Assembly: GCA_951406725.2 (NCBI GenBank)
Contig: OX597825.1
Coordinates: forward strand, 84,692,001-84,756,000
Length of the DNA stretch: 64,000 nt
Source of the DNA: Octopus vulgaris
Taxonomy: Eukaryota
Direction of reading: 5' to 3'
Both the position numbers and the translations under genes were made by a program. Shown in pieces: positions 3,635-51,966 of this stretch. The notes below the pieces were generated by a model. That model saw only the letters and a list, made by a program, of their open reading frames with translations, was not told the origin of the DNA and made no database searches. The first letter of the stretch is position 1. Each line of letters opens with the position of its first letter.

Positions 3635-4020
3635 TTTCTTTTCTACTCTAAGCACAAAGACCCAAATTTTTGGGGAGGGAGCCTGTCGATTGGATCGACC
3701 CCAGTACGAAACTGGTACTTAATTTATCGACCCACCGAAAGGATGAAAGGCAAAGTCGTCCTAGGCAGAATTTGAACTCAGAACGTAAAGACAGACAAAA
3801 TACCTATTTCTTTACTACCTACAAGTGGCTAAACACAGAGAGAGGTCAAACAGGGACGATTATATCGACCCCAGTGCGTAACTGGTACTTAATTTATCGA
3901 CCCCGAAAGGATGAAAGGCAAATTCAACCTCGGCGGAATTTGAACTCAGAACGTAACAGCAGACGAAATATCACTAAGCATTTCGCCCAGCGTGCTAACG
4001 TCTCTGCCAGCTTGCCGCCT
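3635..4020 (-). mobile_element. Composite SINE: B2 (3805-4020) joined to 3' part of B1 (3635-3804)
   Basis: On the minus strand the B2 tail gtaaagaaata is followed directly by ggtattttgtc and a second Nin-like core (gcctttcatcctttcgg..ggtcgataaattaagtaccag) ending in the B1 tail. Confidence 0.85.
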
Positions 4021-4289
4021 TGTGTCTCACTTATAGTGTCACACTAATATATCGACAAATAGTGCCTCACCTGTACCTGGGTTCGTCGCAACCCAACAAC
4101 GAATACCTCGATTCGATATCCTTTTCGTTGAGCCTTCTCGACAGTCAAAACCCATGTATGAGATTGACCTTGTTATATCGAGCTGCTGTTACCAAATTTA
4201 GATACACCTGCTGCCTTGTGATCATAGTACAGGATAACACATGATGTTTGCATCTCTGCACGGCTCTGAATGATGCTGATTTCAAATTT

Positions 4290-14636: not shown

Positions 14637-15262
14637 AGTGGATGTGCAATGGCCCGGTGGTTAGGGAAGAGGACTCGCGGTTGCAGCAACGTGGTATCCA
14701 TTCCAAGGCGGCGAGCTGGCAGAAACGTTAGCACGCCGGGCGAAATGCTTAGCAGTATTTCGTCTGCGTTACGATGTGAGTTCAAATTCCGCCGAGGTCG
14801 ACTTTGCCTTTCATCCTTTCGGGGTCGATAGATTAAGTACCAGTTACGCACTGGGGTCGATGTAATCGACTTAATACCTATGTCAGTCCTTCTTTGTCTC
14901 CCTCTGTGTTTAGCCCCTTGTGGGTAATAAAGAAATAGGTATCCATTCCCAGACCGGGCGTTGCGAGTGTTTATTGAGTGAAATACCTAAAGCCCCACGA
15001 TGTTCCTGCAGGGATGGTGGAGAACCTTGCTGTACTCTTTCACCATAACTTTCCCTCACTCATTCTTCCTGTTTCTGTTGTACCTGTATTTCAAAGGGCC
15101 AGCATTGTCATACCTCTGTGTCACAATGAATCTCCCCCGAGAACTACGTTAAGAGTACACGTGTCTGTGGAGTACTCAGCCACTTGCACGTTAATTTCAC
15201 TAGCACGCTGTTCCGTTAATCGAATCAGCTGGAAACCTCGTCGTCGCAACCGACGGAATGAC
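14637..15262 (+). mobile_element. SINE D1 (same tRNA-like head as D2, different 3' half), interrupted by B2
   Basis: Head gtggatgtgcaatggcccggtggttagg and shared middle cagaccgggcgttg..tttattgag..cctaaag; diverges from D2 after ttcctgtttct. Confidence 0.8.
14707..14937 (+). mobile_element. Full-length SINE B2 inserted in D1
   Basis: ggcggcgagctggcagaaacgttagc...taataaagaaata; 12-bp TSD ggtatccattcc at 14693-14704 and 14938-14949. Confidence 0.92.
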
Positions 15263-19619: not shown

Positions 19620-19841
19620 CTGGCGGAAACGTTAGCACGCCGGGCGAGATGCTTAGCGGTATTTCGTCTGCCGCTACGTTCTGAGTTCAAATTCCGCCGA
19701 GGTCGACTTTGCCTTTCACCTTTTCGGGGTCGATTAAATAAGCACCAGTTCTGCACTAGGGTCGATATAATCGACTTAATCCGTTTGTCTGTCCTTGTTT
19801 GTCCTCTCTGTGTTTAGCCCCTTGTGGGTAGTAAAGAAATA
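19620..19841 (+). mobile_element. SINE B2, slightly 5'-truncated
   Basis: Family consensus match; flanked by ggttt at 19615-19619 and 19842-19846. Confidence 0.9.
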
Positions 19842-22800
19842 GGTTTATAATAAGGCAACTAACTACTGCACATTGGACAAGTTGATTATTCCAGCGGCCT
19901 TCACTACCGGGACTCTGACCCTCAGCATGAATTTCATTTTCCCGAAGATTATCTAACACGTGACCATCGCTGTTGCATTTGTTAAAAACTAACCCGTCAT
20001 CACGGTACACTCCAATTACAGAATTGTTTGTAACTAGAGTTGCCCATAAAAGTTTCTACACTACTTCCACATCATAAGCTTGAGATGATGAAGAATAACT
20101 TTCTGAAATATAATCTCACTTATGTCCATCACAACAAGACTCTTAAAATTTTCTAACTTATTGGCAAACCTATATATAACTCCATTTGATGCGAAATCTT
20201 GGAAAATATGAAATTATATGTTTATTTCCTTCTGTGAATAACATATCCCCCAACTCAAAACTACCTCATCATCTGTTGGTTTTGTGAGTTTTCTTTTCTA
20301 GTAAACGTAATCCCAGTTGTTTGCCAACAACATATGGACTACAAATTATCATTTCTTTTTTTTTGCATTCATGTTCATAGCTGCGCACACAAAGTAACAA
20401 ATGTTGGAAATTACACAAACGCAGACAAACACACACATAAAATTATATATATATATATGCATACATAACGACATACACACGCATTTATATATATAAATAT
20501 GTATATACATACATACATACACACACATACACACATGCATACACACATGTATACATACTTACGTTCCTATATACATACAAGCTTATGCATATATATCCAC
20601 ACGTGTATTAGTGATAACAAATAACCCTTCCCTAATTGGATCAAAATCACGCATCTGATTAGCTGACTGTAATGTTGTTCAGGGGAGAATAAAAAAGAAT
20701 TCATTGAGATTTTACTTAAAATGCCAATCTATATCCAGAGAGACAGGAGGAGGAAGAGAACGAGGGGAAGAGAGAAAGTGAGGTGCAGAGAAAGAGAAGA
20801 AAAGAGAGGATGAGGAAGTGTTAGAAGGAGATGGAAAGTGATAGAGAATGTTATGCACACACATATCCCATTGTATGTCTCAACTTTAAATGCACAAATA
20901 TATGTACGGCCACCACCAACCTCTCTCCCTTTCCATATTGATTTAAGATATTTTCAGATCCCAGCAATTAAAACTAGATGTAAAGAACCGTCCTGTGATA
21001 TTGTAAAACTGTAAAATATTCTACAATGAATAATAAATATTTTCTTGTAGTGTTTATCGAAAAAAAAAATATGTATTAGATCTCAAACATTCACGGATCA
21101 GTGAATGGCCGAGGTACTAAACGAAAGAGCGTCTCCATGCTGTTGCTTAGCCTGCTAGAAACAAGAGCCAAATTTCGTTCATATCATGTTTGTCCTGTTG
21201 ATTTATAGGAAAGGAAGGAATAACACGTTGGTTAATGTGGTTCTGGATACATTGTGTTTAAAACATAAAGATTGAAGGGAAAAGAAACCTGGGATGTGTT
21301 TAATCATAAAGTTTGTTCAATCAAAGGTAAATTGCAGTGAAGCAACAACATCACCGCCAACAATAACAACAGCATCAATAACAGCATCAAGAACTGCAAG
21401 AACAGCAATAACGAGGATCACCGTTCCAACAAAATCAACATTATCAGCAGTAATAGTTCCAACAATGGTGACAGAAACAGCGACAACAACATCATTTCAA
21501 CAAGAACAAAGACGTTTCAATCTCGCCAACAACAATATGAGAATCAACAAGAACAACAATAACATCGCTAACAAAACATCAACAGGGCCAATAATAACTG
21601 CATCAACATTATTAACATCAACCAATGTACGGTGCTGTTCATAATTGTGCACCAAATTTATTTGTACAGATCTTCGCAACAGAATTGGTAAATGTTCGGT
21701 GAGCTGTGCGCATGCGTCATTTTCTCTCCAAGAGTATATCTATTTCACTTCCAACTCATTTTACTATGATGGTGACAAACTTCAATTATATTCTGGACGC
21801 TTTATGATTCACATTGGAATACCGCATAGAAACCCGCCCCTACCTCCACGACCCTGGTCTTCTGTACATTTCCCATATGAAACCCTTCATCCAATCTTTC
21901 CTGTTCACAGTAGCTTCTTGGATCTGAAGTATTTTCCTGCAAATATCTTTCTACTAAAGTTTGTACGGAATACCCAGCGTCTACAACCAATAATCGGGAA
22001 CAGTCATAATGCACCATTCTTCACTCTAGAAATAACAGCCAAAGCTGCCTCAAGGCACACTATACTGCCTTAAAGCGGAGTGACACACATGTTGCAAATA
22101 CACAATGCCTAAGAGAACCGGGCTAAGAAACATAGATAGAATTTTGTCTTGGATGACGTCTCTGTACAGTTTGAACTCATCAAACGGCGAAAATAGAAAT
22201 GTTTCCTAGGAGATAGAGTGATTTTCTAAGAATTCTACACCATTTAACTGTGTTGAAAGAACATTAAGGCTACATCACGAATGAAAACTGTATAAATCCG
22301 ATCATACTTTATAAAGATTCACAATTTGTCGGTGGAAATTCAGCCACAAGTCTCATATTCCATGTGGGAAAGCAAAGTAAACGGTGCCACTATCAGACAT
22401 TTTCTAACAGTGTAAATGAAATCAGGGAAATAAATACTCCACTACAAGTGGGAGGCAAAATTCAATGGACTTCAGTATTGCCTTGTCTAAACTCTTGTTT
22501 CTATTTTTCGGTGATTGAGAGAAACGCAAGTTTACACTGTTTGAAGTACTTGGAGACCTGTAATACACATTGTGTATTGAATGCCATGTTTTATCACGCA
22601 TTTATCAGGTGTGAATGGAACATAATGCCAATTAATTCTATCATTTTCATTTGTATTAGAATATGAAGGATGGAGGTAAACGCGGTGAGACAACAATTTC
22701 TATTGAATTGATAAATCATTCGAACATAACTACAGTTTTTGCCAACGAAACATGGCTACGCCTATCAATCAATTAGGTTGTTTCGTCTTTCAGCTAGTTT

Positions 22801-23229
22801 TTCTTCTCTCTCCAAAAGAAATTGCAGTTTGTTTTTCTTATAGACACAAAAAAGAAATTATTATTCTTTCATAAGTGCGAGGGAAAGATGGCGTTTCTCT
22901 GATGTTTACAGGCTTCCCAGGAGATATAGATAGTGATTTTCTAAGAATTCCACATCATTCAGCTGTGAGGAAACAACGTTGAGGTTTCATCGCAACAAGT
23001 TGTCACCAGATCTCCACAAGATCTCACTAACAACTCATTGATACACCTATGAATGATTGGCTTACCGTAAGATTCTTGTCTGAATCTCTTTTCAATCTCA
23101 TTCCATTCACTTCACCTATGTGACTAATGCCTTTTCATGCCGTTGTTCTTTCTGAAATTTTGGCTGTGGTGCTATTTGAACCTGGACGATGTAAACTTAT
23201 CTTTAATTACTCTCAAGTAAAGACCATCC

Positions 23230-23465
23230 TGTTTTCTTTTTTACTACCCACAAGGGGCTAAACACAGTGGGGACAAACAAGGACAAACAAAGGGATTAAG
23301 TTGATTACATCGACCCCAGTGCGAATCTGGTTCTTTGTCTATCGACCCCGAAAGGATGTAAGGCAAAGTCTACCTCGGCTGAATTTGAACTCAGAACGTA
23401 GCAGCAGACGAAATACCGCTAAGCATTTCGCCCGGCACGCTAACGACCTGCCAGCTCGCCGCCTT
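23230..23465 (-). mobile_element. SINE B2
   Basis: Full head-to-tail match on the minus strand. Confidence 0.9.
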
Positions 23466-26136: not shown

Positions 26137-26498
26137 TATTATAGGCACAAGGCCCCAGTACGAAACTGGTATTTAATTTATGAATCTCGATAGGATGAAA
26201 GTCAATGTCAACCTTGGCAGAATTTTAATTGAGAACATAAAGTCAGACGAATTACCTAATTCTTTACTACCCACAAGGGGCTAGACACAGAAGGGACAAA
26301 CAAAGACAGAAAAACGGATTAAGTCTATTATATCGACCCCAGTGCGTAACTGGTACTTAATTTATCGACCCCGAAAGCTTGAAAGGCAAAGTCAACCCCG
26401 GCAGAGTTTGAACGTAAATACGAGTTTGAACGTAAATACTGACGAAATACCGCTAAGTATTCCTCCCGGCCTGCTAACGATTCTGCCAGATCGCCACC
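26137..26498 (-). mobile_element. Composite SINE: B2 (26257-26498) joined to B1 3' part
   Basis: Minus-strand junction gtaaagaatta|ggtaattcgtc. Confidence 0.8.
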
Positions 26499-38804: not shown

Positions 38805-39203
38805 GAATTGTTTGTACTCTAGACACAAGGCCCGAAAGTTTCAGGAAGTGGACCAGTCTAATAGATCGACCCCAGTACGCAACTGGTTCTTCATTTATCG
38901 ATCCCGAAAGCATATAAGGCACTGTCGACCTCGGCAGAATTTGAACTCAGAACGTAACGGCAGACAAAATACCTATTTCTTTACTACCCACAAGGGGCTA
39001 AACACAGAGGACAAACAAGGACAGACAGACGGATTAAGTCGATTACATCGACCCCAGTGCGTAACTGGTACTTATTTAATCGACCCCGAAAGGATGAAAG
39101 TCAAAGTCGACCTCGGCGGAATTTGAACTCAGAACGTAACTGCAGACGAAATACGGCTACGCATTTCGCCCGGCGTGCTAACGTTTCTGCCAGCTAGCCG
39201 CCT
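38805..39203 (-). mobile_element. Composite SINE: B2 (38974-39203) joined to B1 3' part
   Basis: Junction gtaaagaaata|ggtattttgtc; whole unit flanked by 14-bp TSD tataacagttgtaa (38791-38804, 39204-39217). Confidence 0.9.
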
Positions 39204-40414
39204 TATAACAGTTGTAATAATTGATAAATGTTTGTATATAAATATATTATTAACACCTTAATTCTATGCAAATTTAGAAACACAATATTATCACTAATTA
39301 ACTATTGGTATCTACCAATCATATAAATCAATTTAATCCCGAAACAATAGTTAACGATTTTTGCGTTCACGTAATTAGCTAGAAATAGGAGCCAGTTCAC
39401 CCTCACAACTGTATCTGACCGTCTTTCACCGACACATCTGATAATGTAACTCAATTGGTGTCGTTTGAAAAATTAGAAGGGATAGTCACAAATGGACCGT
39501 CAGTGGTTTTATTTCTTCCGTTTTCTCTTGATTTAGGGCTTTTCATCTTCATCACCACCACTACCACCTCCACCACCATCGCAAAAGGAACAACCTCTTA
39601 CACATAGTAATATAGGTTTTTCTATATACTGAAATTCAGATTGTATTGAAATCGTATGTGTATTTTTTTTTTTTTACTTTTCCCATTACTTTATTTTGTT
39701 TACTTATTCACTACTTTATTCCGTTCATATTTTAGCTGTTAAATTAACCATTCTCCGAATAGCTATTCATCACCATTGTAATTCGGTTTAACGGCGTCTC
39801 TTTGCAATACTTCACAAATATTTCTTTCATATTATATATTAAGTTTATGTCTACATCGAAATATTAACCACTGCTTAAAGTTATTATTTTCAATTGAAAG
39901 ACTAAACAACTTGTTAAGAATACATGTAATATTCCACGACTATTTATTGATTCTATTAAAATACACCATATGTTAATGTCAGACGATATTGTAAAATACA
40001 TAGAAATTAATAAGTTGAGATTCGCTATTCGCAAACTAAATTTTTCATTTATTCTAAACTAGTGTAATTGGAATATTTTATATATACTACAAAATGAATG
40101 CCAAATAAATTCATACAAGAGAATAGAATTTCCTGGGGAAGATAAAATGAATGTAGATATATATGCATGTATGTATATACGTCTGTGTCATGTATATGTG
40201 CTGTGTGTAAGGTGTGTATAAGTAGGTATGCATGTATGTTCTGTTTTTGATTATTTGAAGTTTTCTTGTAAGGAAGAACTTGGTTACTCACTAAAATATC
40301 TTCTCACAAATATATCACACAAAGCACAATCGGTTGCTTGTTGGTAACAAAAGCAATATTAGAAAATTACTATCTGTAAAATTACTATCTGTAAGAGATA
40401 TTGAGCAACAGTAC

Positions 40415-42793: not shown

Positions 42794-42937
<144 letters not shown>

Positions 42938-44025
42938 GGCACCGCGAGTGTCGCGTTGCTCTCAAGCAACTCTGCCGTCCTGGGTCGACCTTGAGTGACT
43001 TCAACACAACCAAAGCATTCTATATGGGTTTAGTGGAGGGGAGGTACGACGACGAGCTCGGGGCGAACCTGGACGTCGACGAGGAGTACCTGACCCGCCT
43101 GTTCAGGACGACTTTCGGGCCAGGGCCCATGGACAACTTCCAGAGATCCCTGGCCTGGCAGTGCTACCGAGAAGCGCTACCCGTTCGGGATAAGCTCTAC
43201 AGACACGGCTCGAGAAACACGGGGCCGACCTGCCCGAGATGCGGTCAGAGCGACGAAACCGTTCTGCACGCACTCGTGCAGTGTCCAACAATTTCCGACC
43301 TGTGGGCTTGTGTCGAACAACTGCTGTCACGTGTGGGACGAGTCGGTTTATCAGCTGAGTCTATCGTCAATATTGTCACGCCTCCCTCTTTCAAACGGGA
43401 AGGAAGAGCTATTTTCATCATCCTTGTGGCTATGGCGAAAGAATGTATCTGGTGGACGCGTCTGAAAGGATTGGAGACAAACACTTTCCTCTCTGGTCAA
43501 TCTCTCATCAACTTCTTCAAGTACCACTTGAAAAGGAAAGTGAGAGTAGAGAGGCAAAGTTTTGTCTAGCGAATGTTTTAAAAAAAGATGGGTGAATGTA
43601 GCAAGAATGGCACGTATGAATGACGAAGCCACCTTGAGCATGATCCTATGAACCCAGAAATTGAAAACAGAGAGTTGCTTATTTGCAAAAAAAAAAAAAA
43701 AGAAATATAACATGTGACTCCATTGACCGAGGTTACCGTGGTCTTTTCCGTAGGCTCTTCTTTCCACGGGTAAACCTCACCTGTCCTCCCCTGTACACTT
43801 CATATTGACATTTCTGTGATAACGATCCCTATTGATCAATTTTTTTTTCCTCTCCCCCTTTTTTTTTAACCCCCCTTTTTTTGTCCTCTTTCTCTCCTTT
43901 TACGATCCCTTTTGATCGAAACTCCCCTTCCTTTTTTTTTTTTTTTTATAAACCTTCAAAAGAAAAGCTCTACCTTGTAATTTGTTCTATCTGTGTGCAG
44001 CCCTGTGTGGCTAATAAAGAAACAT
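42938..44025 (+). mobile_element. Tx1/L1-clade LINE, 5'-truncated: ORF2 C-terminus (zf-RVT) and 3' UTR
   Basis: AWQCYREALPVRDKL..CPRCGQSDETVLHALVQC (CCHC zinc knuckle) and MAKECIWWTR. A frameshift near 43557 extends the frame to about 43650. Pyrimidine-rich UTR ending aataaagaaa. Confidence 0.88.
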
Positions 44026-47750: not shown

Positions 47751-47904
47751 ATAGCATTGTAAATGCCGAGGTCAACTTTACCTTTCGTGTTTTCGAGTTC
47801 GAAAAATTAAGTACTAGTTGCATACTGAGGTCGATCTACTGGTCCCCTCCCCAAAACTTCGAGCCTTGTCCCTAGAGTATGAAAGAACATTGCTTTGTTT
47901 ATCG

Positions 47905-48513
47905 GGAGACGAGCTAGGAGAAGCGTTAGCACGCGGTTAACGGTATTTCGTCGGCGAGCTGGCAGAAACGTTAGCGCGCCGGGCGAAATGCGCAGCCGTA
48001 TTTCGTCTGCCGTTACGTTCTGAGTTCAAATTCCGCCGAGGTCGACTTTGCCTTTCATCCTTTTGGGGTCGATAAATTAAGTACCTGTTACGCACTGGGG
48101 TCGATGTAATCGACTTAATCCGTTTGTCTGTCCTTGTTTGTCCTCTCTGTATTTAGCCCCTTGTGGGTAGTAAAGAAATAGGTATTTCGTCTGCCGTTAG
48201 GTTCAAATTCCGCCGAGGTCGACTTTGCCTTTCATCCTTTCGGGGTCGATAAATTAAGTACCTGTTACGCACTGGGGTCGATGTAATCAACTTAATCCGT
48301 TTGTCTGTCCTTGTTTGTCCTCTCTGTGTTTAGCCCCTTGTGGGTAATAAAGAAATAGGTATTTCGTCCGTCTTTACGTTCCAAGTTCAAATTCTGCCAA
48401 TATCAACTTTACCTTTCAGCTTGTCAAGTTCAATAAATTAAGCACCAGTTTCATACTAACGTCGATCTAATCGACAGGCCTCTTCCCAAAACTTCGTGTC
48501 TGGAGTAGAAAAG
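47905..48513 (+). mobile_element. Triple nested SINE: B1 host containing B2 + B2
   Basis: Old head 47905-47952, full B2 47953-48180, B2 body 48181-48357, B1 remainder from 48358. ggtatttcgtc is repeated at 47942, 48181 and 48358. A separate B1 fragment lies at 47763-47887. Confidence 0.9.
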
Positions 48514-48826
48514 ACTTTCCTCAATTTGTTTTATGGGTCAATTTGCGAGGATTTGTTCTTTCGCTATATATTTTCCTTAAACTTTTACACATAGAGAGAC
48601 CGTAGTTGCGCTAAAACGACACACGCTGCTTCAATGGTAAGGGCAGAGAATAGCAAACTAGGAGTGCATCCACCCCTAGAGCTAGGATGGTGTATGTGTG
48701 TTTAATGCTATACGCAAGGAGGAAAATATGGAGAATATATCATGCGTTTAAGTCAATGCATTTATGCATGTGTATGAGGGGGGTATATATATTCCTCTCA
48801 TATTGGCATAATATCAATCTATCTAT

Positions 48827-51240: not shown

Positions 51241-51438
51241 ATATATGTGTATACACCCGTGTATATATATATATATATATATAAAATAAATATAAGAGAG
51301 TGGTCACTATATTGATCACTCTAGCACCAGTTAATCCAAAAGGTTTCAACCACGAAAACACATGTTTCCCATGAAAGCCAGTACGACTGTTAGCTCACAC
51401 GGACAGGGCAAATAAAAATAACAAAAATACAGATTATT

Positions 51439-51514
51439 TCGGGACAATTGTTTCGCTATTAATGAATTAAATGTAATATTACTTACAATAATCCATTTGT
51501 AGCTCGTCAGCCAA
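51439..51514 (-). ncRNA. Type I hammerhead ribozyme, minus-strand copy
   Basis: TTGG-CTGACGA-GCTA...TAGC-GAAA-CAATTG-TC-CCGA; one G-U pair in stem I. Confidence 0.82.
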
Positions 51515-51613
51515 GACTATCTGGATGAAATCCACTCAATCACACGCCAGATTTTACCATAACGATAAATACGCGTGTGGTTCAATTGATTACATCATTT
51601 CATCCAGATAGTC

Positions 51614-51689
51614 TTGGCTGACGAGCTACAAATGGATTATTGTAAGTAATATTACATTTAATTCATTAATAGCGAAACAATTGTCCCAA
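51614..51689 (+). ncRNA. Type I hammerhead ribozyme, canonical core
   Basis: TTGG-CTGACGA-GCTA-(41-nt loop)-TAGC-GAAA-CAATTG-TC-CCAA; predicted cleavage after C51685; palindromic stem III ACAATTGT. Confidence 0.87.
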
Positions 51690-51966
51690 AATAATCTGTA
51701 TTTTTGTTATTTTTATTTGCCCTGTCCGTGTGAGCTAACAGTCGTACTGGCTTTCATGGGAAACATGTGTTTTCGTGGTTGAAACCTTTTGGATTAACTG
51801 GTGCTAGAGTGATCAATATAGTGACCACTCTCTTATATTTATTTTGTGAAAATATTATAATATGTTATAAAATATTATAATAATCCAGGTTTCTCGTAGC
51901 ACTAGGCCACTTGGTGTGGAATAAATATACTATTAAATTAGTATCTAATTCTCTCACCCTTATTAA

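Follow-up and report, generated by a model that had tools for sequence, protein, structure and literature searches.

Results

SINE copies and composites in the window

The 64-kb window (the whole stretch of Octopus vulgaris DNA that was analysed) carries solo and composite copies of one short element, family B, whose 232-nt consensus (built from 227 copies) consists of a tRNA-like head, a common body and one of two tails, old T1 or young T2. The T2 tail terminates in GAAATA, and T2-tailed family-B copies are labelled B2 here, a label unrelated to the rodent B2. At consensus position 50 of 232 lies site S, GGTATTTCGTC, which we place, by eye, between presumed A-box-like and B-box-like motifs. 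The relevant features are as follows.

47765..47886, plus strand: separate old family-B fragment with T1 tail, just upstream of the nest
47904..47941, plus strand: head of the host, an old family-B SINE with T1 tail, in degenerate form; from alignment to the consensus head
47942..47952, plus strand: left copy of site S, an 11-bp TSD, from the sequence
47953..48180, plus strand: full-length B2 insert, complete with tRNA-like head, body and T2 tail (96.5% to consensus)
48181..48357, plus strand: headless second unit, beginning at S (TRF period 177, 97% match; alignment)
48358..48514, plus strand: right copy of site S with the old host's body and T1 tail, 76.5% to consensus
38811..39204, minus strand: one-head composite (B2, then S, body and T1 tail), with a TSD of about 19 bp around the whole
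3637..4021, minus strand: one-head composite, join at 3804
26153..26498, minus strand: one-head composite, join at 26256, second unit incomplete
14693..14949, plus strand: solo B2 (14705-14937) with a 12-bp TSD starting GGTAT
19620..19846, plus strand: solo B2, head slightly truncated, then GGTTT
23237..23465, minus strand: solo B2, tail end degenerate

Five joins of a T2 tail to S, at 3804, 26256, 38973 (minus strand), 48181 and 48358, are real, as the original prediction had them. The 11-mer is indeed doubled around the insert at 47.9 kb (47942-47952 and 48358-48368), with the degenerate older head (47904-47941) before it; the nest had been read as having three levels, but it contains two heads only and hence two levels. 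The headless unit at 48181-48357 differs from the unit at 47953-48180 by five substitutions and a single 7-nt gap; being 97% like that neighbour and having a non-consensus base in common with it, it has probably arisen from it by local duplication. The composites with joins at 3804, 26256 and 38973 have one head each. Among the solo copies, the 12-bp TSD opening with GGTAT at 14938 and the GGTTT that follows the copy ending at 19841 are both as described; at 23229, where the flank reads GGATG, a copy is present, but its degenerate tail makes it weak as evidence for a junction. The junction GAAATA-GG-TATTTC is an inverted repeat, as read from the sequence. (A MITE-like inverted repeat with 259-nt arms, 98% complementary and 65 nt apart, occupies window positions 51273-51855.)

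Family B is short, dispersed, present in high copy number and flanked by TSDs mostly 12-22 bp long (shuffled pairs yield 0.4%), as a SINE should be. An Rfam search up to E=5 gives no match, and two words from its body are absent from the text supplements searched of PMC4758252 and PMC4824008 (superfamilies Meta, V, Deu/Nin and CORE).

Genome-wide site use and the origin of GG

Exact-pattern matching finds 95,589 T2 tails in the 2.8-Gb assembly. GG follows 55,182 of them (58%), GGTAT follows 43,602 (background 0.07% per position), and the full site S (GGTATTTYRT) follows 28,624 (30%); in 5,861 cases GGTAT is followed by a base other than T. Joins to the antisense GGTAC site of the family number 327, versus 28,624 at S. 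Insertion at GGT(A/T)T, mostly at one internal family site, had been proposed: the strong preference for S holds, but about 65% of tails lie off-site, and the motif there is a loose NNTAT.

A TSD search that ignored the first six bases of the flank found duplications in 65 of 143 solos and 23 of 54 multimers. GG is also present in the left TSD of 40 of the 47 copies that have it on the right, and it is therefore target-derived; the proposal that GG belongs to the SINE consensus and that flanks are random is excluded by the same count, and B2 insertion does show a site preference. The second G never differs between the two TSD sides, while the first differs in 7 of 47 copies, where it is present on the right only (background 3%, p=0.008, in a set partly selected on the right flank). 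The A preceding GG, mismatched in 32 of 47, is element-derived. The pre-insertion motif from 50 TSD-verified copies, unselected on flank, is NNTAT, and off-site copies sit on this loose motif with a GG bias in the younger tail variants. Solo tails at loci L012, L015, L023, L024, L236 and L240 have common flanks from other repeats (starting GGTACTGGCA or AGAAACTGAAAGA), which suggests further recurrent off-site targets.

A LINE family that ends at site S

One non-SINE tail at S, among 30 pattern-matched loci, served as seed for a LINE search (locus L357). Its last 588 bases, without the site, were used as query and gave 997 candidates; 40 of these were scored, and 30 loci were retrieved. With the seed left out, 27 of 29 LINE copies end at S (24 by a strict rule; 30 fetched of 997 candidates), the sampled loci being the closest kin of a seed copy itself found at S; of the remaining two, one is unreadable past GGTATT and one lacks a 3' end. 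The accessible text of PMC4494074 speaks of target preference when more than 20% of flanks agree, a level that 27 of 29 exceeds. The tail pattern itself is not LINE-specific (7 of 28 at S); a further search gives 34 LINE-specific places, and a presumed LINE context used as pattern gives no match. The family has detectable RVT_1 and zf-RVT domains, and its tail is 80-91% like T2 over 34-44 nt, so that the SINE has the LINE-shared 3' end expected of its class. The LINE tail is nearest to the CAAT variant of the SINE tail, though that variant mostly goes elsewhere. At one locus (L379) a SINE head and a copy of the site are kept on the 5' side of the LINE. One observation that speaks against formation in place of the one-head joins described below is that the hosts of the LINE are of greater age, and more often carry T1 tails (16 of 26), than the hosts at those joins (24 of 110; p=0.001).

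A relative of this LINE lies in the window itself:

42937..44025, plus strand: 5'-truncated LINE lying in a (TATC)n tract, with the zf-RVT end of ORF2 and the 3' UTR preserved; the final 42 nt are similar to T2

The two are about 45-60% identical, and the window copy is a relative of the site-S family, not a member of it. In the TATC family Pfam detects endonuclease (APE), RT and zf-RVT, an upstream ORF is present, and all 12 loci end in TATC. (Its copies, at loci L241-L254 and window 42937-44025, are young and near-intact, 97-99% alike over the 3' 774 bases, with no poly(A) tail.) A Pfam endonuclease is found in the TATC family only, the endonuclease of the site-S family being represented by a single tblastn match to the TATC relative (L391); Pfam finds nothing in the ORF1-like frame, nor in one short L357 stretch. 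Atlas places the LINE RT among unnamed L1-type clusters. From its domain layout and its target preference, the partner LINE is likely of 'Tx1' type; the Tx1-type machinery invoked from the window sequence gains support from this LINE, whose tail is related to that of the SINE and whose end falls on the very base of the SINE joins. A different T2-like 3' end, followed by ATT repeats, is seen at L159 (minus, 2969) and L063 (plus, 3476), and may represent a further family, kin to the old T1 tail with its ATT-rich flanks.

Probable insertion of the SINE into its own copies

The reading we favour, with a probability of about 0.65, is that the SINE inserts into its own copies at S by means of the enzymes of the LINE that ends at S. 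It builds on the joins, on a GG that comes from the target, on a LINE whose end coincides with the joins and on the ages of the units described below, and from these we infer a nick at S by a LINE protein and copying from the tail. The LINE endonuclease would nick the bottom strand at S, and its RT would copy the SINE RNA from the tail. When the cDNA meets sequence matching the host, it would usually anneal to the host overhang, and the host head would be kept; one headless 184-bp unit would be added right behind that head, with no second head. Each such step would rebuild S, making rows grow at the front and pushing older units back. Where host and insert differ more, the outcome would be an ordinary nest with two heads and a TSD, like the one at 47.9 kb. 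Inner units would later be duplicated at the DNA level, lengthening the rows, and read-through RNA that pairs with the primer may strengthen the GG bias of off-site copies.

Tail variants and a second target

Tail variants differ in what follows them. CAAT tails are followed by AGA in 5,980 of 12,990 cases (46%), versus 1,472 of 74,852 (2%) for TART tails, and many of the CAAT-AGA cases are joins to a second head position, 17 (AGAAACG; L211-L240). The left TSD starts with GGT in 11 of 26 T-variant copies versus 3 of 23 CAAT copies (p=0.03; background 1%). Mixed arrays keep the link between tail and junction, and the TG tail is at S in 154 of 154 cases.

These counts bear on a possible, though rather doubtful, alternative, in which the SINE RNA is the chief determinant of the target: sequence transcribed beyond the tail would pair with the nicked DNA, and a tail variant would inherit its target from its source array. 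Both contrasts between tail variants fit such pairing, as does a first G that is sometimes present on the right only. At AGAAACG, moreover, no clear LINE was found among 25 loci (22 with an upstream SINE, two with a SINE-type tail and one with other sequence). Yet the CAAT copies have the greater age (6.4 vs 4.4-5.1%), and the link is accounted for just as well if the partner LINE changed over time; several related LINE families are present, and all tail classes have the TAT core. The link may thus reflect either different LINEs over time or RNA after the tail helping to choose the site. Guidance by RNA is compatible with in-place LINE insertion, as a second layer upon it. A non-SINE sequence with a CAAT tail ends at AGAAACG at locus L393 (minus, about 1500), and is possibly an element targeting that site.

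One-head joins and the age of their parts

In 109 of 115 joins of B2 to S (the nest-selected set left out) there is one head and no visible inner TSD. Genome-wide, the pattern of site plus head, which marks a second head, occurs 125 times at S and 109 times at the antisense GGTAC, versus 41 and 6 at two control sites without GG and 9 at the AGAAACG site (a few short tandem repeats included). Two-head, TSD-flanked nests like that at 47.9 kb make up about 1-5% of joins (1-2% when scaled by the antisense ratio).

If one-head composites were mostly descended from multimer masters, transcribed by Pol III read-through and retrotransposed whole, the S join would have arisen only a few times. We consider this unlikely as a general account. 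The original prediction had named the same possibility, a dimeric SINE spreading as a unit, with TSDs only around the whole and halves equally diverged; on its face the first is what is seen, but the second is not. The first body in 140 one-head joins is at the level of 153 solos (3.5 vs 3.6% divergence), while the second body has diverged further (5.3%, p=3e-8); the head, too, exceeds solo heads in age (6.9 vs 5.8%, p=0.01), with the head-body correlation dropping from 0.39 to 0.15. At neutral non-CpG sites of 70 T2-T2 joins the first unit is 2.5% and the second 3.3% diverged (p=0.0005). A TSD hidden within the joint is a further prediction of insertion in place, and with 19 near-duplicate pairs dropped, rare variants at bases 50-61 are common to both units in 12 of 61 cases (9 of 53 loci) versus 49 of 711 further on (p=0.002; non-CpG p=0.012), the pattern predicted for a host-derived TSD; against it, host-type bases at 62-65 are mostly not common to both units. 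In two-head nests rare site variants are shared in 0 of 14 cases, and their inserts have a head variant mismatching the site in 10 of 22 cases versus 15 of 110 (the two-head set being selected on an exact head).

Some observations do speak for whole-unit transfer. TSDs flank multimers about as often as solos (the proportions given above), the consensus has no T4 terminator, and at L045 a TSD surrounds B2 plus 29 nt of the next unit (1 of 18), from which read-through templates probably exist. First and second units are weakly co-inherited across loci (Mantel r=0.12, p=0.014), and in 22 B2+T1 composites the two bodies are equal in non-CpG divergence (3.1 vs 3.4%), with CpG loss unequal (0.21 vs 0.34). 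Against this, the first unit is younger than the parts outside it, there is the hidden TSD, neighbours are just as similar in two-head nests, which were surely formed in place, a TSD around the whole element is expected under both models, and the LINE uses the same site. A point against growth in place is that head divergence correlates with the last unit no better than with the first; any linkage of head variants to first or last unit is too weak to call. Since head and downstream unit are older than the insert, a hidden TSD is indicated and arrays are young at the front, in-place insertion is likely the main route and unit transfer a minor one, as judged from sequence comparison; multimer transfer is probably a contributing route, not the main one.

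It is more improbable still that two-head nests form first at S and recombination between the heads later removes one of them. Such loss would equally lead to young, similar hosts at one-head joins and to old ones in two-head nests, and the near-equality of strict two-head nests at S and at antisense GGTAC looks like depletion at S. It would have to remove 65 bp from more than 95% of nests through recombination between short repeats, however, and it keeps site-specific insertion, altering its timing only.

Contigs from five other runs at two stretches, swamped by repeat copies, yield no empty site. Organisms A and C have the left joint at 47.9 kb, while organisms B and C have both ends of the 38.8-kb composite. 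For organism D the joint with the best support, 48351 to 47964, links the tail to AGAAACG via another 6-nt spacer, and use of the junction may differ between species.

Arrays and their hosts

If the SINE inserts at S in its own copies, its rows should be young at the front. In 41 arrays of at least three units the first, middle and last units are 3.0, 4.1 and 6.0% diverged, with the youngest on the 5' side, and the self-extending arrays that had been envisaged are supported; for the 21 arrays with a T2 end the same gradient falls short of significance (p=0.14). Pairs of inner neighbours tend to be nearly identical (median distance 3.2%; 45% of 56 within 2%), first joins rarely so (8.0% apart vs 9.9% between loci; 10% of 59 within 2%), which is why we take local duplication to lengthen rows begun by insertion, as far as unit similarity can tell. 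Neighbour similarity is equally high in two-head nests, formed in place. Local duplication of a solo copy by slippage or unequal crossover as the source of all multimers can be dismissed as very improbable, because the near-identity that suggests it is mostly a feature of inner units, first joins mostly link unlike units, many multimers end in a T1 tail, and B2+T1 composites refute it as sole cause. Re-priming on one RNA to give concatemers is likewise rejected as main route, first joins linking different units.

The notion that older SINEs serve as a safe haven fits the nest at 47.9 kb, where the host is old, and is wrong for most hosts: downstream units of one-head joins show 4.1% non-CpG divergence, versus 10.3% in solo old-tail copies. 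Old hosts occur mainly in two-head nests; in those nests that have an old tail, the host matches solo old copies in age (10.0 vs 9.2%, n=6).

A broader reading can be offered only tentatively. The SINE may act as its own landing pad, inserting at a base of its own head, borrowing the host's promoter head via a homology-guided 5' joint and rebuilding S, with the rows recording the order of insertion; read-through RNA would be a heritable guide that shifts the target between tail variants.

Relation to known systems

The closest parallel is the crocodilian SINEU/Tx1-Mar pair, in which, according to the accessible text of PMC4494074, a SINE and a Tx1 LINE have a common target in a Mariner element. 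As there, the SINE is less strict than the LINE (13-90% in that system), tandem insertions are sequential, and there are two preferred positions. Unlike there, where the target is a foreign Mariner and a TSD lies between tandem copies, the target here is the SINE's own head, mostly there is no second head or visible TSD, and the site is rebuilt. SINEU membership calls for an snRNA-derived head and a Mariner target; the octopus SINE has neither, and no Rfam match. The octopus system works like SINEU/Tx1-Mar but is not a member of it.

The same text cites Xenopus Tx1, which targets Tx1D, and Kibi and Koshi, which target microsatellites. The preference for repeats is that of the Tx1 clade, and the (TATC)n LINE at 42937-44025 is of such type; those elements, as described there, are without a passenger SINE that serves as target. 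Squamate SINE-derived satellites resemble the octopus rows in being tandem rows of partial SINE units at many loci, but PMC10702118 ascribes their origin to unequal recombination and same-locus insertion, whereas the octopus rows have a fixed, LINE-shared junction and a front-to-back order of age. In RTE-related SINEs, too, the RNA 3' end correlates with the first TSD bases; the accessible portion of PMC6007223 describes an RTE clade, microsatellite tails and 1-2 nt of homology, in contrast to the TSDs of mostly 12-22 bp seen here. A repeat annotation of an octopus genome lists 13 recently active L1-Tx1 families, and the word 'nested' is absent from its main text (PMC13282606, as far as available). 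In the article texts covered, a SINE that takes its own head as target is nowhere described.

With at least 28,000 junctions, the family offers a high-copy natural non-LTR case in which the passenger supplies the carrier's target. The contribution of the present analysis lies in the headless joint, in the ages of the units around that joint and in targets that go with the tail variant. The family makes several questions testable: how Tx1-type endonucleases acquire sequence specificity; how 5' homology might finish target-primed insertion without a visible TSD, which bears on retrotransposon-based gene insertion; and how dispersed SINEs are converted into tandem repeats. A TSD around a whole dimer, it follows, does not prove that the dimer moved as a unit. 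Tandem rows of the SINE head region with periods of about 64 and 121 bp are also found in the assembly, at G000:C10:17996023-17996506 and C11:81438136-81438776.
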